A DNA stretch of 64,000 bases from Candidatus Aminicenantes bacterium. Its GTDB lineage: Bacteria; Acidobacteriota; Aminicenantia; Aminicenantales; UBA4085. Positions 24,916-53,356 of the stretch are shown here, piece by piece. The number at the start of each line of letters is the position of its first letter. Within the stretch, counting starts at the first letter, position 1. The position numbers and the translations under genes are program-made. Under the pieces are notes generated by a model, which was not told the origin of the DNA, searched no databases, and worked only from the letters and a program-made list of their open reading frames with translations. Location of the stretch: NCBI GenBank assembly GCA_963803915.1, contig CAWDOL010000015.1, forward strand, positions 140,013-204,012, in the 5' to 3' direction.

Positions 24916-24983
24916 GAATAAAAGGTAAAAGAATGAAAATGTATATTCATAACTTTATGATTATTAAGGGAGATAAGGTGTGG

Positions 24984-25077: not shown

Positions 25078-25197
25078 GTTGAATTGGCAGTCGGCTAAAA
25101 ACCGATCGTATTCTATCCGGCAGGATGCTCCAAGCTAAAAGGGGGAGCGAGGTCATCGGAGAGATGACGGAAAGGGGTGTGAAGAATTAGCTGGCTG

Positions 25198-25423: not shown

Positions 25424-27253
25424 ATGAAAGAAAAAACGAGTGTCTTCATTCCCACACGGAAAGAGGAATATGGAAAAAGACGAGTCCGTTTAATATCGGG
25501 TTTTCTCCTATCAGGGCTTCTGTTCGGATCGCTGCTCCAGGCCCAAGTCCGGCCGGCTCATGTTTTCGACCACAACATGGTGTTGCAGCGCGACAAACCG
25601 GTCAGAATCTGGGGCTGGGCGGCACCGGATGAGAAGGTAAAAGTCGAATTCGGAGGACAAGTTAAGTCAACGGTTGCCAACCCGCAGGGTGAATGGTGCG
25701 CCTGGCTGGATGCCATGAGCGCAAACGCTCAACCGTCGGATATGAGAATTTCAGGCCGGGCGAGCTCCGTGCGGTTCACAAATGTTCTGGTCGGAGATGT
25801 CTGGGTTCTGGGAGGTCAAAGCAATATGGAATTTGACCTGGCCCGGATCTTCCACGGTGACGCGGAAATTCTATCGGCCCATTTCCCATTGATTCGCCTG
25901 ATGACCGTACCCAGCTCGGCCGATCTGAAGCCCCAAAAAGACTTTGAACGCATCAATGAGTACGATAGCTGGCTCGACCGGTATGACAAAAAGGGATTCT
26001 GGTTTGTATGTTCGCCGGAAACGGTTCCCACGTTCTCGGGAATAGGCTATGTCTTCGGCAGGCGCCTCCATCTGGCCGCTCAAGTTCCCATCGGCTTAGT
26101 GGACGTATCATTGGGCGGCACCACCGTCGAGGCCTGGCTTTCTCCGCAGACGTTAAGCAAAATGCCCGAAAACAGCTCCTTGCTGAAGCAATGGAATGAA
26201 AAAGCGGCCCATTATGATCCGGATAAGGATCTCAAGGAAAAAATCAAGAACTGGGAGACTCGAAGCGCGGAGAGGCTAAAAAAGGGCCTGGAGACGGAGC
26301 CGAAACCCGTTGCGCCTTCTCCCCATCCCGCTTTTGACCGAAATTTCCCCGGTTCATCCTATACGGGGATGGTCTCCGTGATAGCCGGGCTGGCCATAAA
26401 AGGAGTCGTGTTTCATCAGGGATACAATAATGCGCTTGAAGATTCCCGTCCCAAGCAGTATGCCTCCAACTTCAAGGCGCTGATCAACGATTGGAGGGAA
26501 ACGTTCAAGGACGCGAATTTGCCCTTTGGCATCATCGAGTTCAGCGCCGGCGGTGAACCGCAAACGCTCGATAATTACGAGGTCAGGATGCTGGATCCGT
26601 CACCGTTTGTTCGGGAGGCACAGTTTAACGCCTTTCGGACTGTCCCCCTTACCGGATTTGTTTGCTCCTATGACCAGCAGGTCAACTGGTACCATCCCCA
26701 GAAAAAGATGGAAGCCGCCGAAAGGATGGCGCGTTGGGCTTTGTCGACGCAGTATGGTTTCAACCTTAAATGGGAGCCGGCCGTTTGCACTAATGTTGAA
26801 AGACGAAAAGATAAAATCATCATCACCTTCGATAAGGAGGTCAAGGCTTCCGATGACCGTCCTTTCGAAGGCTTCTCAACGGCGGGAAGCGATGGCCGTT
26901 TCTTTCCCGCCCAAGCGGCCTATGTGACGACAAAAAATGAAAAAGGGCAGCCGGTATTCGACAAGAAAAAGATCGAAGTGTGGACTAGCCTATGTGCCGA
27001 TCCGGTTGAGGTCCGTTATGCCTGGGCCCGAAATCCGTTGGGAAATCTGGTTAGCTTGGAGTGCCCGATCATTCCCGTGCCGCCGTTTCGAACCGATGAT
27101 TGGAGCTATCCCGAGGCTCCTTATCAAGCGGATGAGTACGCGGCTCATAGAATTCGAATGAAAGAAATGCGAAGGCAGGCGGAAGAGCTGGCACGGCTCA
27201 GGATCCTTCGGGAGGCCGAACAAAAATTGAACGAGAGAGAAGAATTGAAATGA
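25424..27253 (+). CDS. Sialate O-acetylesterase family (SASA/DUF303, SGNH-like), copy 1
   Basis: 609 aa with a signal peptide. Hallmark VGDVWVLGGQSNMEFDL, then GGTTVEAW and VVFHQGYNNA. Near-identical paralog at 57849-59654. Confidence 0.85.
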   Translation: MKEKTSVFIPTRKEEYGKRRVRLISGFLLSGLLFGSLLQAQVRPAHVFDHNMVLQRDKPVRIWGWAAPDEKVKVEFGGQVKSTVANPQGEWCAWLDAMSANAQPSDMRISGRASSVRFTNVLVGDVWVLGGQSNMEFDLARIFHGDAEILSAHFPLIRLMTVPSSADLKPQKDFERINEYDSWLDRYDKKGFWFVCSPETVPTFSGIGYVFGRRLHLAAQVPIGLVDVSLGGTTVEAWLSPQTLSKMPENSSLLKQWNEKAAHYDPDKDLKEKIKNWETRSAERLKKGLETEPKPVAPSPHPAFDRNFPGSSYTGMVSVIAGLAIKGVVFHQGYNNALEDSRPKQYASNFKALINDWRETFKDANLPFGIIEFSAGGEPQTLDNYEVRMLDPSPFVREAQFNAFRTVPLTGFVCSYDQQVNWYHPQKKMEAAERMARWALSTQYGFNLKWEPAVCTNVERRKDKIIITFDKEVKASDDRPFEGFSTAGSDGRFFPAQAAYVTTKNEKGQPVFDKKKIEVWTSLCADPVEVRYAWARNPLGNLVSLECPIIPVPPFRTDDWSYPEAPYQADEYAAHRIRMKEMRRQAEELARLRILREAEQKLNEREELK

Positions 27254-27282
27254 ACGCGTGAGCAACGACGTTCGTCTCTCGT

Positions 27283-30153: not shown

Positions 30154-30298
30154 CGTCTTGGATCTTCCGTGTGCTTCGGAGCTTTCATCGGCTAAGCCTC
30201 CCTGCAGAGAGATTCTGCCAGAAAACTCACATGGTGTCTGTATCCGTTTTGCGGGATAAGGTCCGCGTCTGTTTATCCGGATGTTCGAGTTCGCCCGC

Positions 30299-30327
30299 TT
30301 GACTTCCATCCACCGCTCCCATAAATT
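30299..30327 (+). promoter_or_regulatory. Sigma70-like promoter candidate for the 30367 gene
   Basis: TTGACT (30299-30304), a 17-nt spacer, then TAAATT (30322-30327), about 40 nt upstream of the ATG. Confidence 0.35.
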
Positions 30328-30366
30328 GAAAAGGCTCGCCATTGCGAAGAGAAGAGGGATCGGATC

Positions 30367-31593
30367 ATGAAGGTAGACAAGCTTTTCTCGGCCCTTCTCT
30401 CGGCCGGCCTTGCCGCGCTGCTCGTTCTTTCCCTTTCTCCAGGCCTGAACGGACAATCCGGGAGCGACGCCTCACGGCTGCTCGGCAAATGGTCCGGACG
30501 AACGGAGTTCGGCCAGCTCGTCCTTGAGTTCCGTTCCGCCACCCAGCTCGTCTTCGAGGGCGACGTCGTGAGCTATAAGCTGCTCCCCGGAATCATCCGC
30601 ATTGAGGATGAGGACGGAACGACTGATTATCGCTACGCCTTCCGCGGCGACACGCTCGTCGTATCCTTCCCGGAGGGTATCCAGGTTGAGTTCACCAGAC
30701 TCGGTGCCCCTCCGAAACCCCTGCCTGCCCCGCTCGCGGGAACAAAGCCCGGCCGGTCTGAGCCGACGCCGTCGGCCGCAGGTAGGGGAGCGGAAATCGG
30801 CGCCCCGGGCATCGCCTCCTCGCCGCAGATCGGGGCCGGAGAAGCAGGGGATGCCGGATGGGGATTCAAGTTCCAGCCGCCTGCCGGCTGGAAGTTCCAG
30901 AGCTCGCCAGAAGGCATCTTCCTGGGCCACGACACGGTTGCCGGGATGATCCTCGTCCTCCCTCACACGGCCGCGAACATCCAAGCCGTCCGGGAGCAGA
31001 TGATGCTGGGGCTCCACGAAGAGGGCCTGGACCTCACGCCGGCCGGGGGCTTGCGCCCTGCGGGGGCATCGGCCCTGGCCGGGGACTATGAAGGCGTCGT
31101 CCAGGGCGGGCAGGCCAAAGCCCTCGGTCTCGGGACTCTATCGCCGTTCGGCGGCGGCGCTTTCATTGTCGCGCTGACCACACCCGAGAAGTTTGGCCGG
31201 GAGCTGCCCGCGGCAGCCGAGACAATCGCCCGAAACATGAGGTACTTTCGCGTCGAAGCCTCCGAGGTCATGAGCCACTTCGCCGGCACTTGGGTTACGA
31301 TGACCAAAAGCACGGAGACGCGCTTCACCCTGACGCCCGCGGGTGAGTTCTACTCCGGCTACGAAGCGAGCTATTCAGGACGGTTCGACGATGGCGGCGC
31401 GTGGGGGACGGCAAGCAACAGCAGCGATCGCGGGCGCTGGACCGTTCGCGGCGACAAGCGGCAGGGCCAGATCATCCTCACCTATTCGAACGGCCGTCAA
31501 GTTCAGATTCCGTACAGAGTCCAAGTCGAGAGGGGGGAGACATTCTGGAACGAGTACTGGTTCAACGGAGATCTTTATGGAAGACGGCGATGA
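30367..31593 (+). CDS. Hypothetical secreted protein
   Basis: 408-aa ORF with a signal peptide (LSAGLAALLVLSLSPGLNG) and coding-like composition. No family motif recognised. Confidence 0.5.
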   Translation: MKVDKLFSALLSAGLAALLVLSLSPGLNGQSGSDASRLLGKWSGRTEFGQLVLEFRSATQLVFEGDVVSYKLLPGIIRIEDEDGTTDYRYAFRGDTLVVSFPEGIQVEFTRLGAPPKPLPAPLAGTKPGRSEPTPSAAGRGAEIGAPGIASSPQIGAGEAGDAGWGFKFQPPAGWKFQSSPEGIFLGHDTVAGMILVLPHTAANIQAVREQMMLGLHEEGLDLTPAGGLRPAGASALAGDYEGVVQGGQAKALGLGTLSPFGGGAFIVALTTPEKFGRELPAAAETIARNMRYFRVEASEVMSHFAGTWVTMTKSTETRFTLTPAGEFYSGYEASYSGRFDDGGAWGTASNSSDRGRWTVRGDKRQGQIILTYSNGRQVQIPYRVQVERGETFWNEYWFNGDLYGRRR

Positions 31594-31645: not shown

Positions 31646-32154
31646 ATGCCGAGACGCCGTCCCGCCCCGTCTCTCGTCGCCGCCCAGGCCGTCAAGGTCC
31701 AGTTTGGCCTCGATGCCAACGCCACGGCGAGGGCCTTGCGGGCCGAGGGCTACTTGGGCGGGATGATCGCCACGGGGGTGTCGTCGTGGCCCTGGCCCAG
31801 CATTACCGGCCGGACCCGGACGGCGTCGTCAACGCCCTGAAGGCCGCCGGCTATTCCCTTGACGAATTCGGCTCGCCTCTCATCCAAGCCTTCGGCCTGG
31901 CCTTGAACGACTTTGCCGCTCTCATGAAGCGGACCCTTTACTCCGTGGGCGCGATGGTCCGCGTCATGGTCCAACGGATGAGCAAGCCGATCGACGCGGC
32001 CGCGGCGCTTGTCGTCGGATACGCGCTCAGGACCGCGCGCGAGGTGACCGCCGCCCTCAAAGAAGGCGGCTACCAGCGGACGGCCCTCGGTGCGGTCTTC
32101 GGCCTGACGTTTGTCCGGATCGGCCAGCTCCTGGCGTCGCTGGGCATCGGGTGA
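31646..32154 (+). pseudogene. Hypothetical helical-repeat protein, frame broken in a G-run at 31774-31778
   Basis: A recurring unit appears in two frames: ARALRAEGY (31343 ORF frame), then NALKAAGYSLDEF and TAALKEGGYQRTAL (31606 ORF frame). Start is uncertain (31577 or 31646). Confidence 0.3.
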
Positions 32155-32200
32155 GGGACCCGTCACTGGCCCGGCGCTACGGACCTTCGAGTTAAGGCCA

Positions 32201-33951
32201 TCAGCCGCGGCGGGTCTTCTTTTTCCCCATCCGCATCAGCAGCCCCATGGCGACCAGGGCCAGGGCCACGGCGAAGTCGATGCGGAAGGCGGGTGCATCC
32301 TTGTAGAGTGTCAGGACGAGCAGCGAGACGGCCGCGACCAGCGCCCCGAAGGCCGCCAGCATGAACCCGATGACCCCGAAGGGCGAAAGGGCATCGCTCT
32401 TGGCGCCCTCGAAAAGGAAGGGCGTCTTCAGATCGGCGAAGAAAGCCGCGACCCGTTGCTTCTCGCCCTCCGGCGTCGGGCGCGAGGCCGTCCCGATGAC
32501 CATCCCGAGGATCGTGGCCGTGACGCTCACGACCGTGGCCGCGGAGTTCCAGCCGCTGCGGAGCCAGAACTCGAGCCTCGGGTCGGCTTTCATCGCCTCG
32601 GCGTAGACCTGGACCAGGATAGAAGTTCGTCAGGACCAGGAGCACGCCCGTGACGCAGCCCGCCGTCAGCCCCCACAGCGTCCCCCGCGCGTTGAACTTT
32701 CTTGAACAGCAGGCCGAAGATCAGCGGAATCATGGTGGCCGGCCCGAAGGCGCTGAAGACGCGGAACATGATGTCCATCAGGTTGAAGCCCTGCAGGGCG
32801 TTGAACAGCATGGCCAGCAGCACCGTGACCGTCCCGATCAGCACCGTGAAGGCGCGGCCGGTGAAGATTTCCTGCTTCTCGGTCAGTCCGGGCTTGATCT
32901 TCCTCTTGAAGAAGTCGCGGGTCAGGACGCCGGACAGGGTGTTGAACTCCGAGCCCAGGGTGGACATCGTCGAGCTGATGACCGAGGCCAGGATCAGGCC
33001 CATCATCCCGACCGGCAGGATCTTCAGGCTGATCAGGGCGTAGACTTCCTTGGCGTTGGCGATCCCGGGCAGCAGCACCCGGGCCGCGATGCCCGGCAGG
33101 AAGAAGATCGGCGGCATGACGAACATCAGGCCGGCGATCAGGGCGATCATCTTGCCGATCTCCTTCTCGCTCTTCAGGGTGTTGTACTTCTGGACCAGGG
33201 CCCAGCTGGCGTTGTAGGAGAGGACGGTGACCAGGAAGACGGTGAAGACGAGGTAGGACCAGCCGTAGGGCTCCGGGGCCGGGTTGAAGAAGCCGGCCGG
33301 CAGCGCCCGGGCGAAATCCCCCAGGTTGCCGATCCTGCCCAGGGTCAGGATGAAGAGGGTGATGACCGAAACGGCCAGGATGGAGACGTTGACGAAGTCG
33401 GTGATCATGACCGTCATCTGGCCGCCCATGAACGAATACAGGATCATGACCAGCCCGATGATGGCCATGAAGGCGGTGATCGAGAGCCCCAGCCCGCGCA
33501 GGGCCACGGCGAAGATGATCGAGGTCGAGAGGATCTTCAGGGCGTTGTCGAACATGCGCAGCGGCAGGCCGGTCCAGACGAAGACCTGGTGGACGATCGG
33601 GCTGTAGCGGCGCTCCATGAAGCCGAGCGGGGTCATGACCCGGGCCCGCCGCCAGCGGCGGGCCGTGAGCAGCCCGCCCAGCACGATGCAGAGCGGGCTG
33701 ATCCACAGGATGACGACGGCCACGATGCCGTACTTGTAGGCGATCTCGTTGTAGATGACGAAGAGCAGGGCGCTGAACGAGGCCTTGTAGAACGACGTCC
33801 CGGCCAGCCACCAGGGCATGACGTTGCCGGCCGCGAAGTAGTCCTTGGCTTTCCGGATGTAGCGGGCCGAGGCCAGGCCGACGCCGACGACGACGATGAA
33901 ATAGGAGAGGATGACCAGGTAGTCGGGAAGCCGGATGCCCTGGTCGTCCAT
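32201..33951 (-). pseudogene. Sodium:solute symporter (SSS) family transporter, two frame breaks near the 3' end
   Basis: Start MDDQGIRLPDYLVILSYFIVVVGVGL.. with about 13 TM segments. The frame shifts at about 32697 (AAG-AAA-G-TTC) and about 32617 (TTC-TAT-C-CTG). Joining the three frames gives ..LFKKFNARGTLWGLTAGCVTGVLLVLTNFYLVQVYAEAMKADPRLEFW.. Confidence 0.8.
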
Positions 33952-35248
33952 CACAGCTCCGAGAGGACGCCGTCCAGAATCGGCCACCGAGGCGTCGATC
34001 TGCTCCGGCGTGATGACCAGGGGCGGGGCCACCCGCATGACGTTGCCGTGCAGGCCGAGCTTGCCGCACATCAGGCCCCTGCTCCACGCACTCGAGGACG
34101 ATTGCCTTGGCCAGGTCCGTGGCCGGCTCCTTGGTCTCGCGGTCGAGCACGAACTCGATTCCGTACACGAGCCCCATGCCCCGGACGTCGCCGATCACCG
34201 GGTGCTTAGCCATCAGGTCGAGAAGCTTTCCCTTGAGATAGGCGCCGTTGCGGACGGCCTTCTCCAGGAGGCCCTCCTTCTCGATGATCTCGAGGACGGC
34301 CAGCGAGCCGGCGCAGCTCAGCGGGTTCCCGCCCAGGGTCGAGGACATCTCGCCCCGCTCGAGGCAGGCGAAGACTCTCGGCCCGGGTCAGGAGGGCCGC
34401 AATGGGCGCGCCGCTGCCGATCCCCTTGCCGAGGACGAGGATGTCGGGAGCGAGGGATTCGTGCTCCAGGGCCCACATCGTCCCGGTGCGGCCGAAGGAG
34501 GACTGGACCTCGTCCAGGATGAAGAGCAGACCCCGGCTTTTGGCCCAGGCCTCGAGCTTCTTGAGGCAGCCCGGGGGAGGGAAGACGAATCCGGCCGTGC
34601 CCTGGTAGGGCTCGACGATGACGGCGGCCAGGGAGCCGGAGGATTGGACCTCGACGGTCTGGTCGAGGAAAGTCAGGCAGAAACAGATCGCATTCCGGAT
34701 GGGTTTTGCCGAAGGGACAGCGATAGCAATACGGGTAGGGAGCCAGGATCGTGCCCGGGACAAGCGGCCCGTAGCTGCGGCGGATCTTGGGGATGCCGCT
34801 CAGGCTCATGGGGCCGAAGGTCCGGCCGTGGAAGCCGCCCCAGAAGGAGACGATCTCGTACTTGTCGGTGAATCGTTTGGCCAGGCGCATGGCCGCGTCC
34901 ATGGCCTCGGAGCCGGTGGTCAGGAAGATGACCTTGTCCAGGTGCGGCGGCGCGGCCCGCACGATCTTCTCGGCCAGTCGCAGCCGCTCCGGGGTCGGAA
35001 AGTCGAAGGTGTTGAGGAGTCTCGCGGCCTGGCTCGGCCAGGGCTTCGGCCAGGACGGGATGGGCGTGGCCGACGTTGGCCACCAGCACGCCCGAGGTCC
35101 AGTCGATGTAGTGCTTCCCGTCGACGTCCCAGATCTCGGCTCCCGAGGCGTGATCCCAGACGACCGGCGCCTGCCAGTTCATGCATTCGGGCTCGTAGGT
35201 CCGGGACTTTTCCAGGAGCTCTTGGGTTTTCGGCCGGGAGTTTGTCAT
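33951..35248 (-). pseudogene. Class III (omega-type) aminotransferase, at least five frame breaks
   Basis: Segments lie in alternating frames: DGKHYIDWTSGVLVANVGHAHP / LLNTFDFPTPERLRLAEKIV..TTGSEAMDAAMRLAK / AAVIVEPYQGTAGFVFPP..ILDEVQSSFGRTG / MSSTLGGNPLSCA / GNVMRVAPPLVIT / ILDGVLSEL*. Breaks are at about 35031, 34682, 34376, 34076 and 33981. The stop overlaps the SSS start (TGATG). Confidence 0.8.
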
Positions 35249-35382
35249 GGTCGGCTCCTTGCTTCCGTTGAGTGTCTGCCCTTATTTTCTCCGCGCCCGG
35301 CCGCGTGTCAAGCGACCCCGACGGGACGCCCGATGCGGCAACCCTGGCCGTGATGGGCGCAGAGTGCTAGAATCAGCCCATC

Positions 35383-36612
35383 ATGGATGAGAGGGTTCTT
35401 CGGGCCGTCGACGACAATCTCGAGGGGGCGCTGGAAATCCTGCGCGGGCTGATCGAGATCCCGTCCACGAGGGGCGAAGAGAAGGGCCCGGCCCGATTCC
35501 TCCAGCCGCGCCTGGCAGGCCTGGCCGATTCGGCCGAGCTCGTCCCCGTCCCCGATTCCATCCGGGACGACCCCGACTATTCCTTCCCGCTCGACGGCTT
35601 CCGCTACACGGGCGAGGCCAATCTGCGGGCTGCATCAAGGGGAACGGAGCGGGCCGCAGCCTGGCTCTCAATACCCACTTGGACGTCGTGCCCGCGACAC
35701 CCGGACAGGTCGAGCCCTTCAAGGCGCGGATCGAAAACGGCTGGGTCCACGGCCGCGGGGCCTGCGATGCCAAGGGGCAGGCGGCCGTCATCTGGCTCGT
35801 CCTCAAGTCCCTGGCCGATCTGGGCCTGCGCCCCGGGGGAGACCTGACCGCGGATTTCGTCGTCGAGGAAGAGTGCGGCGGCAACGGGACGCTCCTGGTG
35901 CAGCGAAACGGCCTGGCTGCCGACGGCGCGATCGTCCTCGAGCCTACCGGCCTCGACGTCGTCCATCTTGTGCGCGGGGCCGTTTGGTTCGAAGTGCGGA
36001 CGTCGGGTGTGGCCGGCCACAGCGGCAGCCCCGGCACGACCGTCAGCGCCCTGAAAGAGGCCGTCGAGGTCATGCGGGCCATCGAGGCTCTCAGGGAGGA
36101 GACGCTGGCCGTGTCGCGGCAAGCCGTACCCGAGATCGCGGACCACCCCAACCCGGCGCCCTGCACTTTCGGCATGCTCCATTCGGGCGTCTGGCCGGCC
36201 GCCGCGCCGGACGAGGCCGTCCTCAAGGGCGTGTTCGGGTTTCTGCCTCCCTTCCAGCCGGCGGCAAATCCAGACTCGCCTGGCGGAAGCCGTGCGCCCC
36301 TTCCGGGCGGAAGTCCGGTTTACGATGCTGCGCAACGATCCGTCCAGCGTCCCCCCGGCGCATCCCTTGCCGCAGACCCTGCTTGCGGCCTGCCGCGAGG
36401 CCGGTCTCGCGGCCCGGCCGGCCTTCATGAACGCCTCGTGCGACGCCTGGCGATACACGGAAGGGCTGGGCATTCCGGCCGTCGTCTTCGGTGCCGGCTC
36501 CATCGGGACGGCGCACGGCCGGGACGAGCGGGTGGCTGTCGACGATCTCAGAAAGGCGGCCTCCGCCATCATCCGATTCATCGATCAATGGAGCGGGCTC
36601 GAACATGTCTGA
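35383..36612 (+). pseudogene. Peptidase M20 (ArgE/DapE/deacylase-like), two frame breaks
   Basis: LNTHLDVVPA, GRGACDAKG and VVEEECGGNG. The C-terminal part ..NASCDAWRYTEGLGIPAVVFGAGSIGTAHGRDERV.. is in a third frame. Breaks are at about 35631 (-1) and about 36263 (+1). Confidence 0.8.
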
Positions 36613-37663
36613 AAAGCCGACCATGAAAGCGCTGGTCAAGACCGCCAAGGGCGAGGGCTTCGTCGAGCTTCGGGACGTCCCGGTCCCGGAGATCGGACCC
36701 GGCGACGTCCTCATCGAGGTCAGAGCGGCCGGCATTTGCGGCACCGACATCCACATTCTGCATGACGAGTTTCCGTACTGGCCGCCGGTCATCCTGGGCC
36801 ACGAGTTTGCGGGCGTCGTCGCCGCTCTGGGCCCGGACGTCCGGGGCTGGGCCGTGGGAGACCGCGTCGTGGGCGAGCCGCACACCCTGGCCTGCGGGAC
36901 TTGCTGGCTCTGCCGGACCGGGAGCCGCCAGCTGTGCGCCTCCAAGCGCTCGCCCGGCTGGGGCATCGACGGTTGCTTTGCGAAATGGATGCGCTATCCC
37001 GAGCCGGCCCTTCTCCACCGTATCCCCGACGATATGCCCTTTGAGGAAGCCGCCTTCGTCGAGCCGGCGGCCAACGTCGTCCACGACGTGCTCGAGCGCG
37101 GCCGGGTCGAGCCGGCGGACGCGGTGATCGTCGTCGGCCCGGGGCCGATCGGCCTCATGGCGGCCATGGCGGCCAAGGCAGCGGGCGCGGCCCGCGTGGC
37201 CGTGGCCGGAACAAACGCCGATGAGGCTGTTCGCTTGCCCGCGGCCCGCAAGATCGCCGCGATCGACGCCGTCTGGAATGTCGAGAAAGACGATGTCCCG
37301 GCCGCGGCCGCCGCGTTCACCGACGGGCGCGGCGCCGACCTGGTGGTCGAAGCCAGCGGCTCCGAGGGCGGCATCGGCCTCTCCGTCCAGCTGGTCCGCA
37401 AGAAGGGCAGGGTGGCGGCCATCGGCCTCACGGGACGGCCGGCGATCTCATTCCCCTACGAAGCCGCCATGTCCAAGGCCGTCGATTTCATCTTCAATAT
37501 GTCCACGTCTTACACGTCCTGGGACCGGGCCATCCGCCTCGTCCACAGCCGGCAGATCGATGTCCGGCCGTTGCTTACCCATAAAGGCGGGCTGGACCGG
37601 TGGCGCGAGCTCTTCTCGGCGATGGAGAGCAAGCAGGGCCTCAAGGGCGTCTTCATCCCCTGA
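36605..37663 (+). CDS. Zinc-dependent alcohol/polyol dehydrogenase (MDR family)
   Basis: ATG at 36605 (8-nt overlap with the upstream gene). Motifs GICGTDIH, GHEFAGVV, structural-zinc cysteines CGTCWLCRTGSRQLC, and GPGPIGLMAA. Confidence 0.85.
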   Translation: MSEKPTMKALVKTAKGEGFVELRDVPVPEIGPGDVLIEVRAAGICGTDIHILHDEFPYWPPVILGHEFAGVVAALGPDVRGWAVGDRVVGEPHTLACGTCWLCRTGSRQLCASKRSPGWGIDGCFAKWMRYPEPALLHRIPDDMPFEEAAFVEPAANVVHDVLERGRVEPADAVIVVGPGPIGLMAAMAAKAAGAARVAVAGTNADEAVRLPAARKIAAIDAVWNVEKDDVPAAAAAFTDGRGADLVVEASGSEGGIGLSVQLVRKKGRVAAIGLTGRPAISFPYEAAMSKAVDFIFNMSTSYTSWDRAIRLVHSRQIDVRPLLTHKGGLDRWRELFSAMESKQGLKGVFIP

Positions 37664-37692
37664 ACGGGGAGCGGCCCAGGAAGGAGAAAGCC

Positions 37693-38722
37693 ATGACTCA
37701 TGAGTTCGGCATCATCGGGGCGGGGATCATGGGCGGCGCCGTCGGCCGGGTCCTCAAGAACATACCCAGTGTGAAGATCCGGGCCATCTGCGATCCGGAC
37801 ATCGAGCGGCGCGAAGCGCTGGGCCAGGAGCTGGGCGTTGCGGCCCTCTACGCGAACCACAAAGACATGCTGGACAAGGAGAAGCTCGATGCGGTGGCCG
37901 TGGCCACGCCGGACCATTTTCATCGCCGGCCCGTCGTCGACGCCCTGCAGGCCGGCTGCCATGTCTATGTCGAAAAGCCGATGGCGACCTCGCAGGCCGA
38001 CGCCGAGGAGATGTTCCGGGTGGTGAAGACAACCGGCAAAAAGCTCCAGGTCGACTTCAACCACCGCTGGCTCTCGCCCTACCACAAGGTCCGCGAGATG
38101 ATCACGGCCGGCAAGATCGGCGAGCCGCTCATCGGCTTCGCCCGCAAGAACAACCCGATCTTCGGTACCGACCCAGATGATCAAGTCCTGGTCGGCCAAG
38201 TCCACCCCGGCCTGGTTCCTGTCCTGCCACGACATCGACCTGATGACCTGGTGGTTCGACGCCGATCCGGTCGAGGCCTATGCCCGCGGGACCAAGAAGG
38301 TCCTGGCCGGGATGGGCTTCGATACCTACGACGGCATCCAGTCGCTGGTGACCTATGAGGGCGGCAAGCACGCCACCTACGAAGCCGTCTGGATCTACCC
38401 GAATTCGAGCCCCTACATGCCCGACTCGTTCATGGAGATCATCGGCAGTGCCGGCTCCCTGCACCTGGACCGCAAAGCCGAAGCGATCGACGCCCTGCTC
38501 CCGGAGAAGTTCGATTGCCCCAGGACTTTCCTCAATTATAAGGTCTTCGATGAATGGCAGGGTGCCTTCCCGGCCGCGGTGCGGGGCTTCGTCTATGCCA
38601 TCGAGCACGACACGGAGCCCCATGTCGGCGCCCGCGACGGCGTCCGGAGCACGGCCGTCCTGGACGCCATCCATCGCTCGCTCGCGTCCGGGAAGCCCGA
38701 GACAATCAGCCTGAACGTCTGA
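37693..38722 (+). pseudogene. Gfo/Idh/MocA family oxidoreductase, one frame break near 38165
   Basis: RBS AAGGAG then ATG at 37693. Motifs FGIIGAGIMGG and VYVEKPMA. After ..ARKNNPIF the sequence continues in the 38177 ORF frame (VPTQMIKSWSAKSTPAWFLSCHDIDLM..). Confidence 0.8.
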
Positions 38723-38749
38723 CCGGCCCTCGTACGACGGAGTCATGCC

Positions 38750-39421
38750 ATGAAATTCGCCGACGACATCGCAATGTTCGCCTTCATGGAGAAGACCTTC
38801 TACTCGGGGGCCATCTCCGACATCCTCGACGGGATGGGCTTTCCGGTGTGCGCCGCCGGCCCGCATGCCCTGATTCGGCCGCTCTACCAGCAGGCCGTCT
38901 GCGCCGGCCGCGTCCGGACGCTGCTCAACGCGCCCATGCGGACCGGCCGCGAGGACCCGTACAAGCTGGCCATCGCCCTCATGGACAGCCTCAAGCCCGG
39001 CGATGTCGCCGTAGCCACGGCGACCAAGCCGCTCGAGACCGGGATCATGGGCGAGCTTTCGGCCACGGCCATGCGGAGCCGCGGCGCCCGCGGCTGCCTC
39101 GTCGACGGCTACACCCGCGACGCCCGCAAGATCATCCAGATGCAATTCCCCGTCTTCGCCAAGGGCATCTCGCCGATCGACACCACGGACCGGGCCGGCG
39201 TCGTCGATATCGACGGCCCCGTGCTTTTCGCCGGCCGCCGCATCAGCCCGGGAACGATCGTCTTTGCCGATCTCGACGGCATCGTCTTTATCCCCAGGGA
39301 GATCGAGAAGGAGGCCATCGGGGAGGCCGTTCGCCGGGTCAAGGCCGAGTCGACGGTCCGCAAGTCCCTGGCGGCCGGAAAGAAAGTCCGCGACGTCTGG
39401 GACAAGCACCACGTCATGTAA
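38750..39421 (+). CDS. RraA / HMG-aldolase (demethylmenaquinone methyltransferase-like) family protein
   Basis: 223 aa: ..GIMGELSATAMRSRGARGCLVDGYTRDARKI..FPVFAKGISPID..ISPGTIVFADLDGIVFIP.. Confidence 0.8.
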   Translation: MKFADDIAMFAFMEKTFYSGAISDILDGMGFPVCAAGPHALIRPLYQQAVCAGRVRTLLNAPMRTGREDPYKLAIALMDSLKPGDVAVATATKPLETGIMGELSATAMRSRGARGCLVDGYTRDARKIIQMQFPVFAKGISPIDTTDRAGVVDIDGPVLFAGRRISPGTIVFADLDGIVFIPREIEKEAIGEAVRRVKAESTVRKSLAAGKKVRDVWDKHHVM

Positions 39422-39437
39422 GTGAGGAGCTCCGCCG

Positions 39438-42400
39438 ATGACGAGAAAGATCGCCGCCGCGCTCATCCTGATGGCCGTCGCCGGACTCGGCTTCCCTCCG
39501 CAGAGGCGGGCCCTCGAGCCCCTGAGCTATCGCGAGGATTTCGAGTCCCGGGAGCTCAATGCCTGGGCCTCCTACCCGCTCTGGCAGGACACGGCCTTCG
39601 ACCCGAACATCCGGCCGGATACCATCGTCGCCGGGGACCCGAATATCTCGCTGGTCGAGAAGGTCACGCCTTACTCGCCGGTCGAGTGTTACGCGGGGGC
39701 GCAAAAGGCTTTGCAGGCGTGGTTCCGGCCGGGTTCCTCGGTGAGTCTGCGGGTCTACCTCAAGACGGAGCTGCGGCCCGAGTGGATCAAGATCAGGCTG
39801 GCAGCAGGCGACAAGGGGGCCGTGGACTTCACCGCGGCCGGCCCGCCGACCAACGCCTGGCTGCCCCTGACCGCGTCGTATGAGGATTTCGTCCGGTCGA
39901 ACCCCGCCATCGGAGGGGGCGACCTCCAAATCCACGGGCTGGCCGTCATGGCCAAATTCTCCAAGGGCGATCCGGCCATGCCCATCTATTTCGGGCTCGA
40001 CGACGTCGTCGTCACGGCCGAGCAGGAAGCCGCGTTCCGGTTCGCCGAGCCGGCCGTCGACAAGCTCAGCGAGTGGACGCCTTTCATTCCGCGCCAGGCG
40101 TATCAGACGGGCGACACGCTCGTGGTCGAGGGAAAATGGCCCTTCGAGGCGGACCGCGTCGAGCTCGAGGTCGGGAGCTTCGCGACAGAAGGAAAGCCCC
40201 TCGCCGTGAGCCGTCTCGCGTTGAAGGACGGGGCAGTGGAGCGGCTCGGTCAAGCTGCCCTTTCCCCCGGGCCTTTACCGGGCTCGCTTGACGGCTTTCG
40301 ACGGGGCGGTGCCCGCGGCCGAAACGGAGTTCACGTCCATATCGTTCCCGCGGGAATCGCCGGCCGGCATCCGCGGCTGTGGTTCGACGAAACAGTCGAG
40401 GCCCAAGATCGCGGCCCGCCTGGCCGAGCCCCGTTTCAAGGCCGTCCGCGACGGTATCCTGGCCGACCTCAAGGACAGCCGGGAGAAGCTGCCGCCCGAG
40501 AAGATCGTCTTCGATATCGACGCCTTCCCTGGGGACGAGCCGCTCATCGGCAACGTGCCCCGCTCCATCTACCCCTGGTTCACCCGCATCACGTCCTGGG
40601 AGAAGGCCCTCCGCTCGAGCGCCCTGGCTTATGCCCTGTGCGGAGTGGAGGAGGCCGGGGCCTACGGCAAGGCTGTCCTTCTGAAGCTGTGCACCTTCCC
40701 GTTCTGGGTCCATCCCTGGTTCGAGACGCGCGGGCAGCACATCTACTATCCGGTCGGCGAGCTGAGCATGGAAGCGGCGCTGGCCTACGACCTTTTCTAC
40801 GGGCTGATGAGCGAGACGGAGCGCCGGGCCTGCCGCGAAGCATTCCGCCGCAACATGGTCATGGGGCTGTCACCGCGGCTATGTCGAGGACAACCTGGTT
40901 ACGAGCGGCACTTCCAACTGGATCGCCCATGTCACCTGCGGCTCGCTCATGGCCCAGGCGGCTGTCTTCGGCGACGGGGCGGCCGATGAAAAGCAGGAGC
41001 TTCACTTTACCGGCGCCGTCCTCAAGCTCCACGACTTCATCGGCAAATCCGTCGGTGCGGACGGCGGGTACGGCGAGAGTCTCGGCTACAGCACGTTCAC
41101 CATGCTTTCGCTCTCCAAGGCGCTGCCCGCCCTCGACAACGTCTTCGGCCTGGACCTCTCGGCCCCGCTCTCCCGCACCTATCCCGACCTGATCTGGGCC
41201 GGGCTGATCAAAGACAAGCTCTTCTTCCACTACGGCGACTCGGGCGGGAGCCTCGGCCCGATCACCAGCGGGGCCGGCATCCTCAATCCGATCCCCAATT
41301 GGGCCTGGCTGGCGGCCAAGCTCAAGGATCCGCAGCTTCTCTGGCTCTACGCCTTTCTCAAGAAGGAGGAAACCTTCCAGGACGTCCTCCACCCGACGGA
41401 GGCGCTGCCCCGCAAGGATCCCTTCGCCGAGAACCCGATCAGGCTTTTCCGCGACCTGGGCACCACCGTCTTCAAGAGCGGCTGGGAGCGCGACGACTTC
41501 GCCTTCGTCATGCGCACGGGCGCCTTCTACAACCACCAGCACCTGGACCAGGGCTCGTTCTGGCTGGCCGACCGCGGCATCGTCTTCATCGGCGAGCGCA
41601 CCGGCAGCCACTATTACGACGATCCATACTACCAGTCGCACTACACCCAGCCCGCGGCCCACTCGACCATCCTCATCGATCGCAACCCGCAGAGCCAGCG
41701 CAACGGCGATCCGCTGCGGCTTATCGACGGCTTCGCCGACCGGGCTTTTATCCGCGAATTCCTGGATGGGAAGGCGGCCGCCTTTTCGTCCGGCGACATC
41801 GGCCGCCTCTACGGGGACAAGATCAAGACGATGCGCCGCGGCGCGCTCTACCTCAAGCCGCGGGCCGTCCTCATGATCGACACGATCGTCCCCGCGAAGA
41901 ATGACGTCGATGTGACGCTTCTCTTCCAATCATCCAGGCTCGAGGACATCCGGCCGTCGCCTCGAGACTCGCGGATCGTCAAAGGCGGCAGCGCCCTCCA
42001 CATCGCCCACCTGGCGCCGGCGGAGAAGACGGAGGTCAAGACAGAGGAGACGCCGGTCTACATCAAGACCCTGGGCTCGGAGTATCCGCTGGCCAAGGAA
42101 GGCATGCTGACGGTTACGGCCCGCACCAAGGGGCGGCCTTTGGTCATGGCCAGCCTGCTCCGGGTGGATGCCCCTGAGAGCGGCTCCCTCGAAGTCAACA
42201 CCGGGGGACGGATTCGTGGCGGGCGAGATCGACGGCTGGCGCTACGCCGTCGGCCATGACTTGGGCCGCCGCATCCAACCCGGCGGATTCGCCACGGACG
42301 GCCAGGCCCTGGCCTGGAAAGAAGGGGCGGTGTTCGCGGTCGAGGCCAAGGTCCTGGTGCGCGGAGGCAAGTCTCTTTTCGAGTCGAGCGAGCCGGCAAC

Positions 42401-42521
42401 GTTCGAGCTTTTGCCCGACAGGATCACGGGCTGCCTGGCGGCCCCGGCCAAGATCGTGCTCTTCGCGGCGTCGCGTCCGGCATCGGTCACCGTCAACGGC
42501 AAGGCGCTTCAAATCGTTTGA
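39438..42521 (+). pseudogene. Heparinase II/III-like (polysaccharide-lyase-like) protein, at least five frame breaks
   Basis: Signal peptide. HPRLWFDE..; C-terminal Hepar_II_III-type block GAFYNHQHLDQGSFWLADRGIVFIGERTG..AAHSTILIDRNPQ. Four ORF-track pieces are in different frames. Breaks are at about 40250, 40345, 40403, 40867 and the G-run at 42203-42207. Confidence 0.7.
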
Positions 42522-42598
42522 CCTACGATAAAAGCAGTCAGCGGCTGAAGATGAGCCTCCCGGCCGGCGAGGTCGTGGTGACTTTTTAGGAGAAGCGG

Positions 42599-43987
42599 AT
42601 GGACAGACGAAAATTCATCGGCGTGTCCTCGGCCGGGGCGGCGGCCTTCCTCTCCGGTCTCAAGCCCGCTGCGGCGTCCGCGGACCGGACCGTCCCCACC
42701 GATCAGGCCGCACCGTCCGCTTTCCAGCCCCACGCTCCGCTGCCGACGGGGGAGCCGGCCCTCGCTTCGTTCTCCCCGGCCGATCTTCGCCGGATCAAGC
42801 GCCAGTACGAGTATGACCTCTACGAAGATTTCCTGCCCTTTATGGACAAGTTCGTGGTGGACCACGAATACGGCTCGTTCATGTGCACGGCCGACCGCGA
42901 CGGCACGCGCCTTTCCGAGGACAAATCGGCTTGGTTCACGGGCCGCGGCATCTGGGTCTATTCCTTCCTCTACAACAACCTGACCCATGATCCGAAGCAT
43001 CTCGAGATCGCCCGCAAGGCCGTGGACTTCATCCTCAAGTCCAAGCCGCGGGAGAACGACCTTTGGCCGTCGGCGTTCACCCGGGAAGGCGAACCGAAGG
43101 GCGCCCCGGACGCCAGGACGTACGGGGACCTCTTCATCGCCTCCGGGCTGGCCGAATTCTCGGCGGCCTCCGGCGACCCGCGCTCCTTCGATATGGCCAA
43201 GGAGCTTCTCCTCAAGTGCTTGCGCGTGTACGACCGGCCCGATTTCTGCCCGGAGATCGTCAATGACTACAAGCTGCCGAACGTGCCGCTTGTTCCCGGG
43301 GCCCGTGTCCAGGGGGTCTGGTTCTGCACCTTGAGCCTGGCCACGACCTTGCTGACGCACCGCCGCGACGAGCAGGTCGCGGCCGTCGCCGACCGGTGCA
43401 TCGACGCCGTCATGAACCGTCACTTCAACCCGGAGTACGGCCTGAACAACGAGATTCTGGAGCACGACTTCTCCCGGCCCCGAAACGACCTGGCCCGCTT
43501 CGTCTACACCGGGCATTGCATCGAGACGCTGTGGATGGTCATGGACGAGGCCGCGCGGAGGAAGGACCGGACCCTCTTCGAGAAGGCCGAGGCGCGGCTG
43601 CGGCGGGCCGTCGAGGTCGCTTGGGACGACATCTACGGCGGCGTCTTCCGAAGCCTCAACGATGCCGAGGCCAACGTCTGGTACACGGACAAGGTCCTGT
43701 GGGCGCAGGAGGAAGTCCTCATCGGTACGCTGATGGCGGCCGAGCACGCCGGCAGCGCCTGGGCCAAGGAGTGGTTCGTCCGGATGTACAACTACGTCCA
43801 TGACAAGTGGCCGCTGGCCAAGCACGGTTTCCCGCTCTGGGATAACTCCACCGATCGGAAAGTGACGTTCGTGCCGCACTCCACACGGATCGAGAACTTC
43901 CATCATCCCCGCCACCTGATGCTCAACCTGCTGGCCGCCGGGCGCCTGCTCGACAGGGGCGGCAAAGTTTCGGGCGTCTTCACTTAA
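42599..43987 (+). CDS. AGE-superfamily (N-acylglucosamine 2-epimerase-like, alpha/alpha-barrel) protein with Tat signal
   Basis: MDRRKFIGVSSAGAAAFLSGL (twin-arginine). Motifs: DKSAWFTGRGIWVYSFLYN, YTGHCIETLWMVMDEA, LWAQEEVLIG, NFHHPRHLM. Confidence 0.6.
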   Translation: MDRRKFIGVSSAGAAAFLSGLKPAAASADRTVPTDQAAPSAFQPHAPLPTGEPALASFSPADLRRIKRQYEYDLYEDFLPFMDKFVVDHEYGSFMCTADRDGTRLSEDKSAWFTGRGIWVYSFLYNNLTHDPKHLEIARKAVDFILKSKPRENDLWPSAFTREGEPKGAPDARTYGDLFIASGLAEFSAASGDPRSFDMAKELLLKCLRVYDRPDFCPEIVNDYKLPNVPLVPGARVQGVWFCTLSLATTLLTHRRDEQVAAVADRCIDAVMNRHFNPEYGLNNEILEHDFSRPRNDLARFVYTGHCIETLWMVMDEAARRKDRTLFEKAEARLRRAVEVAWDDIYGGVFRSLNDAEANVWYTDKVLWAQEEVLIGTLMAAEHAGSAWAKEWFVRMYNYVHDKWPLAKHGFPLWDNSTDRKVTFVPHSTRIENFHHPRHLMLNLLAAGRLLDRGGKVSGVFT

Positions 43988-43996
43988 GAGAAGGCC

Positions 43997-44755
43997 ATGG
44001 AAAAGCTGTCGTACTACGATTGCTTCTGTTCCGTCGGGCGGGTCGGGAATCCGATCCTCCTGGACATTCCGGATGTCGCCGGGCTGAAGAAGGAGATGGC
44101 GGCGGCCGGTGTGGAGCGGGCCCTGGTCTCGCACACTCTGGCCCGCTTCGGCGACCCCGTTATCGGCAATTCCCGGCTGATGACGGAGATCGCCGGCGAC
44201 CCGGACCTGGATCCGGTCTGGTTTCTCCTGCCGCATCACACGGGGGAGATGCCTCCGCCGCCGCGGCTGCTCGAAGAGATGAAGGCGGCCGGCGTCAGGG
44301 CCGTACGCCTGGACCCCGGCCGGACCCATCAGGGCTTCTCCCTGGCCGAATGGTGCGCGGGCGATCTTCTGGCGGCCCTTGAAGAGGCCCATTTGCCGCT
44401 CCTTCTCGATGCCGATGCCGTGACCTGGGACGAGGTTCGGGACCTACTCCAAAACCACCCCGCGCTGCCGCTCGTCATGGCCAACTGCACCTATCGCTTC
44501 AACCGGTTTCTCTACCCTCTGTTCGAGAAGTACCCGAATCTCCATGTCGAGATCTCCCGCTTCCTGGGCGCCGGGGCCATCGAAGACGTCGTCCGGCGCT
44601 TCGGCAGCCGGCCGCTGCTCTTCGGCACCAACATGCCGTATTACACGGGGACGGCCGCCGTGGGGCGGCTGGCCTACGCCGAGATCGGAAGGGACGAGAA
44701 GGAATCCATCGCCGGCGGCAATCTGCGCGGGATCATCGGGGAGGCCTGGTCATGA
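43997..44755 (+). CDS. Amidohydrolase-2 (TIM-barrel) fold protein lacking the N-terminal HxH
   Basis: 252 aa, collinear with the next gene (..LLFGTNMPY..). It has YYDCFCSVG where the paralog has IIDMHAHVG. Confidence 0.55.
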   Translation: MEKLSYYDCFCSVGRVGNPILLDIPDVAGLKKEMAAAGVERALVSHTLARFGDPVIGNSRLMTEIAGDPDLDPVWFLLPHHTGEMPPPPRLLEEMKAAGVRAVRLDPGRTHQGFSLAEWCAGDLLAALEEAHLPLLLDADAVTWDEVRDLLQNHPALPLVMANCTYRFNRFLYPLFEKYPNLHVEISRFLGAGAIEDVVRRFGSRPLLFGTNMPYYTGTAAVGRLAYAEIGRDEKESIAGGNLRGIIGEAWS

Positions 44756-45549
44756 GCGCCCTCGAAGAGCGGATCCACGCCGGCCTGCCCCTGGACGACA
44801 TCGAGATCATCGACATGCACGCCCATGTCGGCCCCTTCTACAACCTGCACATCCCGGCCGCCTCCGCCGCGGACATGGTCCATGTCATGGACCTCTGCGG
44901 CATCCGGAGGACCGTGCTCTCGGCCAACTTGAGCTTCGAAGGCGATATCGCCGCGGGCAACGACATGATGCGCGAAGCGGTGGCGGCGCATCCGGGCCGA
45001 CTGCTCGGCGCGTGCGCCGTCAGCGGCAGCTATCCCGAGCTCTCGCAGGCCGAGCTGGAGCGGTGCTTCGCCCGGCCGGGTGTCGTCTTGATCAAGCTCC
45101 ATCCCTGGTACACCAAGTGCGCCCTGAACGATCCACGAATGAAGGGCATCTACGCTTTCGCCGAGGAAAGAAAAGTCCCCGTCCTGGTCCACACCTGGCT
45201 CGACGGCGATCCCTTCGGCTCGCAGGACCTGTTCGCCGCGGCGGCCCGCGAACACCCGGGCATCAGCTGGATCATGGGCCATTCGGGGGGCCCTTACGGG
45301 AGCCGGCGCGCGGTCGAGATCGCCCGTGAATCACCCAACGTGTTTCTCGACACCACGCTTTCGATGTGCCCGGCCCGGCAGATCGAGTTCTTCGTCGGGG
45401 AGGTCGGCGCGGAGCGCATCCTCTTCGGCACGGACAATCCCTTTATCGATCCGCGGCCGCAGATCGGGCGGGTCGGCTTGGCCCAGATATCGCTGCAGGA
45501 CAAAATCGCCATCTTCGGCGGCAACGCAAGAAAGCTGCTGGGGCTCTAG
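44752..45549 (+). CDS. Amidohydrolase-2 family metal-dependent hydrolase
   Basis: 265 aa with an ATGA start/stop overlap with the upstream gene. Motifs IIDMHAHVGP, VLVHTW, GHSGG and FGTDNPFIDP. Confidence 0.7.
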   Translation: MSALEERIHAGLPLDDIEIIDMHAHVGPFYNLHIPAASAADMVHVMDLCGIRRTVLSANLSFEGDIAAGNDMMREAVAAHPGRLLGACAVSGSYPELSQAELERCFARPGVVLIKLHPWYTKCALNDPRMKGIYAFAEERKVPVLVHTWLDGDPFGSQDLFAAAAREHPGISWIMGHSGGPYGSRRAVEIARESPNVFLDTTLSMCPARQIEFFVGEVGAERILFGTDNPFIDPRPQIGRVGLAQISLQDKIAIFGGNARKLLGL

Positions 45550-45592
45550 ACGGCCGGGTTATGTGACGGCGACGGATGTCGTGGAGGAAAAG

Positions 45593-46726
45593 ATGAGAAG
45601 AGCGTTGTATTGGGCCGCGGCTCTCCTTGGCGCGGCGGTCGCGTTCGGATACGCATCGCCCCAGGAAACCATCAACATCCCGGGGACCGTCGGCGTCGTC
45701 ATGCAGTCGAACGAACGGCTGCTCTACCCGCGCTTGGAGGATGTGGCCATTCGGACCATGGACCGCCTGCCGGACGGGGTGGGGCTCAAGCTGCTGCTCG
45801 TTTCGGATTTGAAGGGCTTCTCCCGCTTCGAGTATGCGACGAACGGCGCCCCGTTCCGCGAGGCGGCCGGGGGGAGCCTGGTCATCGCCTTCGAGGACAA
45901 GCACACGCCCGATGTCCAGAAGACGGCGACGATCATCCGCGCCGTGAGCGCCTCCGGAGCAGTCTCCAAGGATTACGGCCTCAACGTCAACTATTACCCG
46001 CGGGAGCTCTACGCCAAGGCCGGCCAGACCGCGCCGGGCTACGTCATTGTCCAAAAGACGGATATCCCCATCGTCCTCAGCCGTGTGGCGGACTGGATCG
46101 TCGACCAGCCGACGTCCGAGGACGCCGCGTTTGCCGCCGCAACCTGGGGGAAAGCTATCGAGGGAGCGACGACTCCGCTGGACAAGGCCCGGCGGCTGGC
46201 CCGGGCGCTGATGGACGAGCTCAAGACCCACCGGGGCACCCCTTCCGACAAGATGAACGTGCCGCCCTTCGAGCAGTATCGGCGGCTCATGGCGGGGGAG
46301 GATCGGGCCTGGTGCAGCAACCTGGCCGATATCTTCGTCCATGCCTGCAACGCCCTGGGCGTGCCGGCGCGCCAGATCAAGATGATGCGGACCTGGTCCA
46401 AGGGCAGCGCCTATGACTTGCTGATGGCCGAGGGTCACTCCACGACGGAGATCTTCGCCGCGGACCTCAACAAGTGGGTCTGGATCGACCTGACCTTTGC
46501 CATGACCGGGATGGAGCTTTCCGGCCTGGGTTCGATCCACATGGCCGAGCTGGCCCGGGCCCTCAACGATGCGGACCGGATCGGCGGCCTGACGGCCACC
46601 GTCTATGATCCGCAAACACGGACCGAAAGGCGGATGAGCGCCATCGACAGCCCCGGCCGCGATGCTCTGCTGAACTACTTCAAGCGGGACCAGATGTTCA
46701 CCTATTTCCAGAAGAAGACACCATGA
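45593..46726 (+). CDS. Transglutaminase-like cysteine-protease-fold protein, secreted
   Basis: The ATG at 45593 follows GGAGG. Signal peptide. Cys context RAWCSNLADIFVHACNALGVPAR. His/Asp context AEGHSTTEIF..KWVWIDLT. Confidence 0.65.
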   Translation: MRRALYWAAALLGAAVAFGYASPQETINIPGTVGVVMQSNERLLYPRLEDVAIRTMDRLPDGVGLKLLLVSDLKGFSRFEYATNGAPFREAAGGSLVIAFEDKHTPDVQKTATIIRAVSASGAVSKDYGLNVNYYPRELYAKAGQTAPGYVIVQKTDIPIVLSRVADWIVDQPTSEDAAFAAATWGKAIEGATTPLDKARRLARALMDELKTHRGTPSDKMNVPPFEQYRRLMAGEDRAWCSNLADIFVHACNALGVPARQIKMMRTWSKGSAYDLLMAEGHSTTEIFAADLNKWVWIDLTFAMTGMELSGLGSIHMAELARALNDADRIGGLTATVYDPQTRTERRMSAIDSPGRDALLNYFKRDQMFTYFQKKTP

Positions 46727-47757
46727 AGCCGCCCATCAAAGCCCCCGTCGTTTTCAAGGTAACGGACTACGTCGAGCGCGATCTTGCTTGGGAGAAAGCC
46801 GAGTGCAAAAACCTCGGCATCAAGCTCGCCGCCTACCAGCTCAAGACGGCCCCGGCGGCCGAGATCGTGGCCAAGGTCAGGGACGCCGACATCGTGCTCG
46901 TCAACATGGCCGCGTTCAGGGAGGACGTCATCTCCAAGCTGAAGCGGACCAAGCTTGTCATCCGCCACGGCATCGGCTACGACAACGTCGACGTGGCGGC
47001 CTGCACCCGGCAGGGCATCGTCTTCGCCAACGAGGCCACAGCCTCGAGCGAGGATGTGGCCGAGCATGCCCTGATGCTCATGCTGGAGGCCTATCGCAAG
47101 AAGCGCGTCCAGGACGAGATGCTCAAGGACTGGATCCGGACAGGCGTCTGGAGCTCCGAAAAGATCCATCCGCTCTTCCGCCTGGCGGGCAAGACGATCG
47201 GCATCGTCGGTTGCGGCAACATCGGTTCGCGAGTCTTCAAAAAGATTCAGGGCTGGGGCACGAAGGTTCTGGTCAGCGACCCCTACCTCCCGAAGGAAAG
47301 GAAGGATGAGCTGGGGATTGTCCATACGCCCCTCGAGGTCCTCTTAAAGGAATCGGACATCGTCACCATCCATGTCCCGGTGACGCCGGAGACGCGGGGC
47401 GTGTTCGATGCCGCGCATCTGGCCCTCATGAAGCCGACGGCCGTCCTCGTCAACACCGCGCGCGGGCCGATCATCAAGACGCAAGACCTCATCAGGGCTC
47501 TCAAGGCCGGGAAGATCGCGGGCGCGGCGCTGGACGTCTTCGAGGAGGAGCCGCCGAAGCCCAAGCTCGAGCTCTTCAAGATGAAGAACGTCATCCTCAG
47601 CCCTCACGTCGCCTGGTACAGCGAGGAAGGGGGGCTTGATATCCGCCGCATGATCATGGAGGACGTCCGGGCCTTCCTGGCCGGCCGTCTGCCCCGTTTT
47701 GTCATCAACCCTGAAGTCCTCCAAAGCGCCGTCCTGCGCTATCCCTTAAAGAAATAA
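46723..47757 (+). CDS. D-isomer-specific 2-hydroxyacid dehydrogenase (CtBP/PGDH-like)
   Basis: 344 aa with an ATGA overlap with the upstream gene. Motifs GIVGCGNIGSRV, VTIHVPVTPETRG, NTARG and SPHVAW. Confidence 0.85.
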   Translation: MKPPIKAPVVFKVTDYVERDLAWEKAECKNLGIKLAAYQLKTAPAAEIVAKVRDADIVLVNMAAFREDVISKLKRTKLVIRHGIGYDNVDVAACTRQGIVFANEATASSEDVAEHALMLMLEAYRKKRVQDEMLKDWIRTGVWSSEKIHPLFRLAGKTIGIVGCGNIGSRVFKKIQGWGTKVLVSDPYLPKERKDELGIVHTPLEVLLKESDIVTIHVPVTPETRGVFDAAHLALMKPTAVLVNTARGPIIKTQDLIRALKAGKIAGAALDVFEEEPPKPKLELFKMKNVILSPHVAWYSEEGGLDIRRMIMEDVRAFLAGRLPRFVINPEVLQSAVLRYPLKK

Positions 47758-53292: not shown

Positions 53293-53356
53293 GTGGGACA
53301 AGGGATGGTATTTGGTCAGGGAACCGAAGTCAAGAAGGCTGGATCTTAAGGTGCGT

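Follow-up and report, generated by a model that had tools for sequence, protein, structure and literature searches.

Long-read and hybrid genome assemblies can retain single-base insertions and deletions (indels) that split open reading frames (ORFs) into adjacent pieces matching one reference protein, an error for which polishers and correctors have been described (Polypolish, PMC8812927; Kastor, PMC12007338). Errors of this kind inflate apparent pseudogene counts, give low completeness in a contiguous assembly, and persist locally where polishing fails. Homopolymer-length error is given as the usual residual error in long-read bacterial assemblies (PMC8812927). Genuine pseudogene clusters, such as those left by operon decay during reductive genome evolution, resemble these errors in that several adjacent genes are frameshifted and their orthologues are intact in relatives; genuine decay, however, is deletion-biased (PMC2817411), comes with nonsense substitutions, larger deletions and a raised ratio of nonsynonymous to synonymous substitution (dN/dS), and spares essential genes. 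Here we describe a block of broken genes at 31.7-42.6 kb of a 64,000-nt stretch of DNA from a Candidatus Aminicenantes bacterium (C15:140013-204012, in a draft metagenome-assembled genome of 4.2 Mb, 30 contigs and ~65% GC). We refer to the whole stretch as the window, and positions are those of the window unless a contig is named. Six genes are broken in the block: those for an orphan repeat protein, a sodium:solute symporter (SSS), a class-III aminotransferase, an M20 peptidase, a Gfo/Idh/MocA oxidoreductase and a heparinase-like protein.

Judged from sequence comparison, the block is very likely an assembly or consensus indel artefact rather than gene decay. Removing the extra bases restores ORFs that are collinear with their orthologues, the same signature is found across the genome, and completeness is low despite high contiguity. 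The block departs from the usual long-read error in that inserted bases outside homopolymers dominate, and in that the errors lie in blocks of roughly 6-16 kb. None of the marks of genuine decay listed above is seen here.

Orthologous loci in related genomes

An initial annotation, made from the window's sequence, had placed sixteen frame breaks in this region, in the six genes named above, with the Zn-dependent alcohol dehydrogenase (ADH) and RraA-like genes between them intact. We assigned gene identities by Pfam profile scans of ORFs, and judged strands from these together with the GC content at first, second and third codon positions (GC1, GC2 and GC3) of each ORF. In a plot of GC3 by phase, the best-coding phase flips at intervals of a few hundred bases from 31.8 to 42.2 kb, with the strand remaining constant. 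The intact ADH finds orthologues in four genomes of the same genus, at 84-93% amino-acid identity. On contig C110 of one related genome, G002, the genes of the locus are all unbroken ORFs: SSS ~579 aa, aminotransferase 430 aa, M20 peptidase 409 aa, ADH 352 aa, Gfo/Idh/MocA oxidoreductase ~342 aa, RraA-like protein 223 aa, heparinase-like protein 1060 aa and epimerase-like protein 450 aa. We aligned 32150-44050 of the window to G002:C110:1380-13200 with MAFFT (90.2% nucleotide identity), and searched the window with the G002 proteins by tblastn for a second placement of the breaks.

In the five genes with an orthologue, all breaks are indels of 1-2 nt in the window relative to an intact locus in G002. 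In total the block contains 17 frame-breaking indels, comprising 13 insertions of 1 nt, three deletions of 1 nt and one insertion of 2 nt; two further 1-nt indels (35270 and 35327) fall in an intergenic spacer. The alignment and tblastn placed 15 of the 16 positions of the initial annotation within ~20 nt and added one that it had missed, at ~42516, and the tblastn search bore out its list of intact genes and, for the five with orthologues, its list of broken ones. Its claims of an insertion bias, a mostly non-homopolymer context and a lack of in-frame stops also hold in the alignment and in a codon-wise comparison. A few of the inserted bases extend an existing run (from one to two or from two to three), and most are a foreign base placed between two different bases; A, T, G and C are inserted about equally often.

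At least six independent short-read metagenome assemblies of the sister species have an unbroken locus, and the aminotransferase has its full 430 aa in these and in the genomes G001 and G004. When the five inserted bases are removed from the aminotransferase gene of the window, as the initial annotation had suggested, an uninterrupted ORF of 430 aa results. The corrected protein shares 96% identity with P0001, an intact protein of 430 aa that is its closest match in a collection of 5.8 billion proteins and comes from the sister species; the family comprises hundreds of ~430-aa proteins from Aminicenantes and Acidobacteriota. Congeners at ~90% nucleotide identity have none of the orthologue-aligned indels. 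Exact-protein look-ups of the window's intact ADH and RraA-like proteins found no independent contig of the same strain, and a search of the rest of the genome turned up no other copy of the block, whether duplicate or strain variant.

Selection on the broken genes

The breaks could instead be real frameshifts in six genes of a dispensable locus, the result of a very recent decay of an operon for carbohydrate or amino-sugar utilisation. Consistent with this, the breaks are concentrated in one co-located set of genes, genes a few kilobases away are intact, and the locus adjoins ~17.8 kb that are inserted or rearranged in comparison with G002, a sign of a remodelled neighbourhood. The coding sequences themselves argue against decay. 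When compared with G002 codon by codon, the frame-corrected broken genes have no in-frame stops in ~2,800 codons. Relaxed selection, another check proposed by the initial annotation, was not found: dN/dS relative to G002 is 0.11-0.18 in five broken genes, equal to that of the intact ADH, RraA-like and epimerase genes nearby (0.15-0.18). The broken genes contain neither multi-base deletions nor nonsense substitutions, and 13 insertions stand against three deletions, whereas real bacterial pseudogenes are deletion-biased, as are genuine prokaryotic indels in every group surveyed (Kuo and Ochman, 2009, PMC2817411). The ADH and RraA-like genes, midway along the block, are untouched, which also speaks against decay and is expected for random errors at ~1.5 per kb in short genes. 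With the essential genes described below, the operon thus lacks the raised dN/dS, the nonsense substitutions, the deletion bias and the sparing of essential genes that mark a pseudogenised operon, and we consider its decay very unlikely.

Frame switches across the genome

We trained a table of codon log-odds on 789 long ORFs of the genome, and used it in a 7-state Viterbi frame tracker whose states are the six coding frames and non-coding DNA. Switches between frames of the same strand were classed as frameshift-like where the old frame stays open past the junction. In the window, 16 of 17 frameshift-like calls were corroborated (12 by orthologue alignment, three by Pfam, two by coding potential only) and one was false; on intact orthologous loci from the short-read assemblies and G002, ~52 kb in all, the tracker made no false calls.

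Genome-wide, the tracker found 2,935 same-strand frame switches, of which 2,271 (0.54 per kb) are frameshift-like. Insertion-like events make up 74% of these and 87% of those in the strictest class, a bias that is absent from ordinary gene boundaries. The events are strongly clustered, with a mean of 5.4, a variance of 30 and a maximum of 31 per 10-kb bin; neighbouring events are 495 bp apart at the median and 1,790 bp on average. Gaps of more than 5 kb without any event cover 52% of the genome, the longest being 58 kb. When events less than 2 kb apart are grouped, there are 134 clusters of at least five events and 61 of at least ten, and the largest clusters span roughly 6-16 kb with ~2.4-3 detections per kb. 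Homopolymer runs of at least 4 nt lie within 12 nt on either side of 14% of insertion-like junctions, compared with 20% of random coding positions, so these junctions show no enrichment for homopolymers; a slight enrichment is seen for deletion-like junctions, as runs of at least 6 nt are found near 2.6% of deletion-like junctions and 0.9% of random coding positions. GC content was considered as a cause of the dirty blocks: event density rises ~2.5-fold from 61% to 71% GC, a trend confounded by detection power, which also climbs with GC3. A paralogue of the Zn-dependent ADH at C14:279095-280085 is in two frames (query residues 7-216 and 212-339), and is a further frameshift outside the window.

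Within the window, the block accounts for 17 of 21 breaks in 10.7 of the 64 kb, far more than chance would give (binomial P = 2e-10), in line with the clustering originally described. In the genome as a whole, 10.8% of windows of equal size have as many detections as the block (13) or more. The block is thus ordinary for this genome, and it is the remainder of the window that is cleaner than average. That ~11% of windows of this size are at least as badly broken is a further point against the decay of one particular operon.

Essential genes

The same signature is found in genes for transcription and translation. The stretch C3:370,000-389,000, which holds rpoBC, tuf, fusA and ribosomal protein genes, is a dirty block with more than 20 insertion-like frame switches. 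In six of seven relatives searched, rpoB is one open frame of 1429-1441 aa; here it is found as seven pieces by hidden Markov model search, in several frames, and the frame tracker calls five insertion-like shifts within it and another in rpoC. Pfam profiles show that EF-Tu is cut within domain 2 (profile positions 1-29 and 35-73 fall in successive frames), and the second tuf copy is also split. By the same profiles, EF-G (fusA) is cut within domain IV, ribosomal protein L1 (rplA) is cut at profile position 101/103, ribosomal protein L3 (rplC) is in pieces, and the N-terminal domain and KOW motif of NusG are in different frames. A living cell cannot carry such breaks in its essential genes as real mutations. 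Recent decay offers no account of these genes: rpoB, rpoC, tuf, fusA, rplA, rplC and nusG are broken in the same way as the operon, and cannot be pseudogenes. The assembly is among the largest and more contiguous of its genus, yet its estimated completeness is 76%, compared with 94-97% in five of seven more fragmented congeners.

Genes of this group appear in more than one frame in some other public genomes as well, namely rpoC in G002 (C33:7682-11574) and G019 (C1:500240-504266), and rpoB in G005 (C139). Indel errors may be present in other public genomes of the clade, or the split in rpoC may be genuine in certain cases.

A cell could in principle live with broken essential genes if thousands of +1 sites were corrected by RNA editing or programmed frameshifting. 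The sole point in favour of such recoding is that essential genes look broken in a genome that is presumably from living cells. By eye, the 17 break sites share no sequence motif, the four bases are inserted in roughly equal numbers, and congeners at ~90% nucleotide identity are without the sites. Moreover, the sites lie in blocks of roughly 6-16 kb separated by up to 58 kb of clean sequence, an arrangement that belongs to an assembly and not to a decoding mechanism. We assign recoding practically no probability.

Individual breaks in the window

The orphan gene (31673..32154, plus strand) encodes a small protein with a repeated xxALKxxGY motif, and has a deletion-like break of -1 at a run of five G (31774-31778). 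This break is the sixteenth position of the initial annotation, and no homologue of the protein turned up in 20 relatives. The break is supported only indirectly, by a frame switch in coding potential and GC3 at 31777/31780 and by the repeat motif, which runs on across both frames.

The SSS and class-III aminotransferase genes are on the minus strand, as judged from codon-position GC, Pfam and tblastn. The symporter gene (SSS/SSF family, ~579 aa, 32216..33957) has insertions at 32621 (+A) and 32698 (+T), supported by the alignment, by the Pfam SSF profile and by tblastn pieces in three frames. The gene for the class-III (GABA-type) aminotransferase (430 aa, 33955..35248) has five, at 33982 (+G), 34074 (+G), 34377 (+C), 34684 (+C) and 35034 (+T), and is found by tblastn in five pieces that agree with the alignment.

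The remaining genes of the block are on the plus strand. The M20 peptidase gene (35383..36612; 409 aa in relatives) has a deletion at ~35632 (-1) and an insertion at 36256 (+A); tblastn finds it in three pieces, in agreement with the alignment, and the Peptidase_M20 profile is divided between frames (6-113 and 115-205). The Zn-dependent ADH gene (352 aa, 36605..37663) is intact, has the Pfam domains ADH_N and ADH_zinc_N, and is matched by tblastn over 352 aa in one piece (92.6% identity). The Gfo/Idh/MocA oxidoreductase gene (342 aa, 37693..38722) has one insertion, at 38161 (+T), such that its N- and C-terminal Pfam domains are in separate frames and tblastn finds two pieces. The RraA-like/aldolase gene (223 aa, 38750..39421), identified by its Pfam RraA-like match, is intact, with one 223-aa tblastn match at 95% identity. 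The heparinase II/III-like gene (39444..42589; 1059-1060 aa in relatives; Pfam Hepar_II_III_C) is found by tblastn as five pieces in alternating frames, with breaks at 40234 (+C), ~40336 (-1), 40394 (+A), 40863 (+G), ~42199 (+1) and ~42516 (+2). The last two positions are approximate, since they lie in a more diverged stretch.

Two of these sites serve as examples for a possible mixture in which most breaks are artefact and one or a few are real polymorphisms. The break at 31774-31778 lies in the longest homopolymer run among the sites of the 17 breaks, in an orphan gene for which there is no orthologue. The segment 42199-42516 is just 60% identical to G002, and its two indels sum to +3, as a compensating +1/+2 pair would. 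However, deletion-like events near longer homopolymers belong to the genome-wide error spectrum, and the segment 42199-42516 matches its orthologue solely in a shifted frame, which makes the indels disruptive rather than the source of a new reading. We regard such a mixture as highly improbable.

Surroundings of the block

Downstream of the block, 42599..47727 (plus strand) is a clean flank of five intact genes, encoding a GlcNAc-2-epimerase-like protein, two amidohydrolases, a 381-aa protein without an assigned family and a putative D-2-hydroxyacid dehydrogenase. Each gives one full-length tblastn match to its G002 orthologue, and the only switches that the frame tracker reports in this flank are ordinary gene boundaries.

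The initial annotation had also listed four breaks outside the block, and the frame tracker found them at 4307, 6092, 50429 and 62574; three are backed by Pfam architecture. All three affected genes are on the minus strand. The gene for an M14 carboxypeptidase (3247-5416) is cut in the middle of its domain by the frameshift at ~4307, a tricorn protease (49902-53092) is parted from its S41 domain by that at ~50429, and SelB (61482-63408) is split after domain II by that at ~62574. These splits are presumably errors of the same kind.

In G002, a class-I/II aminotransferase gene (13256-14395 in the window) directly adjoins the SSS gene; here ~17.8 kb (~14.4-32.2 kb) lie between the two, which points to inserted or rearranged DNA in comparison with the sister species. 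This stretch includes an island of 43-46% GC at 22-26 kb with genes for PD40-repeat proteins, and a GH2-family gene (27283-30471). It is free of frameshift calls, with the low-GC part not scorable by the tracker. Two 1.85-kb copies with 92% identity lie at 25447-27289 and 57848-59690 (with a further matching pair at 24975-25079 and 53190-53294). Each copy contains a gene of ~610-635 aa with a SASA domain (sialate O-acetylesterase-like carbohydrate esterase) in DNA of lower GC, and the copies look like paralogous or duplicated acquired genes.

Discussion

The initial annotation held that locally unpolished long-read consensus accounts for the block no worse than decay does, and that the choice could not be made from sequence alone. 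The first of these statements is supported by the genome-wide signature and by the broken essential genes. These two lines of evidence together largely decide for an artefact, and in this respect whole-genome context goes further than the second statement allowed.

We propose that the genome is a mosaic, in which accurate blocks would alternate with blocks that keep uncorrected single-base indels at ~1.5-3 per kb, mostly spurious bases inserted at random positions outside homopolymers. The cause may be a noisy long-read consensus that was left unpolished in the dirty blocks. In these, either just a few long reads may have bridged or covered the sequence, or accurate short reads may have been absent or impossible to place. 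The insertion bias outside homopolymers and the 6-16-kb blocks look more like the product of low-coverage consensus of the PacBio continuous long read (CLR) type, or of gap filling or bridging with long reads in a hybrid assembly. The pattern suggests this platform and this origin of the blocks, and both are guesses on our part. A mixed-strain consensus that merges two alleles was considered as a source of the inserted bases and set aside, since any insertion would fit it.

Several points weigh against an artefact, or limit how far it can be pressed. The individual indels are not directly disproved by the comparisons made here. Insertion-dominated errors outside homopolymers are not the error classically left in nanopore assemblies. 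The genome-wide counts come from a heuristic detector validated on this window and one orthologous locus only. Lastly, the break in the run of five G at 31774-31778, in the orphan gene, could be a real length variant. We see a small chance that a minority of the breaks, such as this one, are real variants in the population or, less likely, that the whole operon is decaying amid assembly errors.

The relevance of an indel artefact is one of quality control only. With its blocks holding roughly two thousand false frameshifts, the genome does not give reliable gene calls, pseudogene counts or completeness estimates until it is polished, nor reliable claims of decaying operons or split genes, and findings based on its broken or fused ORFs should be discounted likewise. 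The organism's real genes would be intact. The operon for the SSS, aminotransferase, M20 peptidase, dehydrogenases, RraA-like, heparinase-like and epimerase proteins is conserved and intact in the sister species, and on this comparison it should probably be treated as functional in this organism too.

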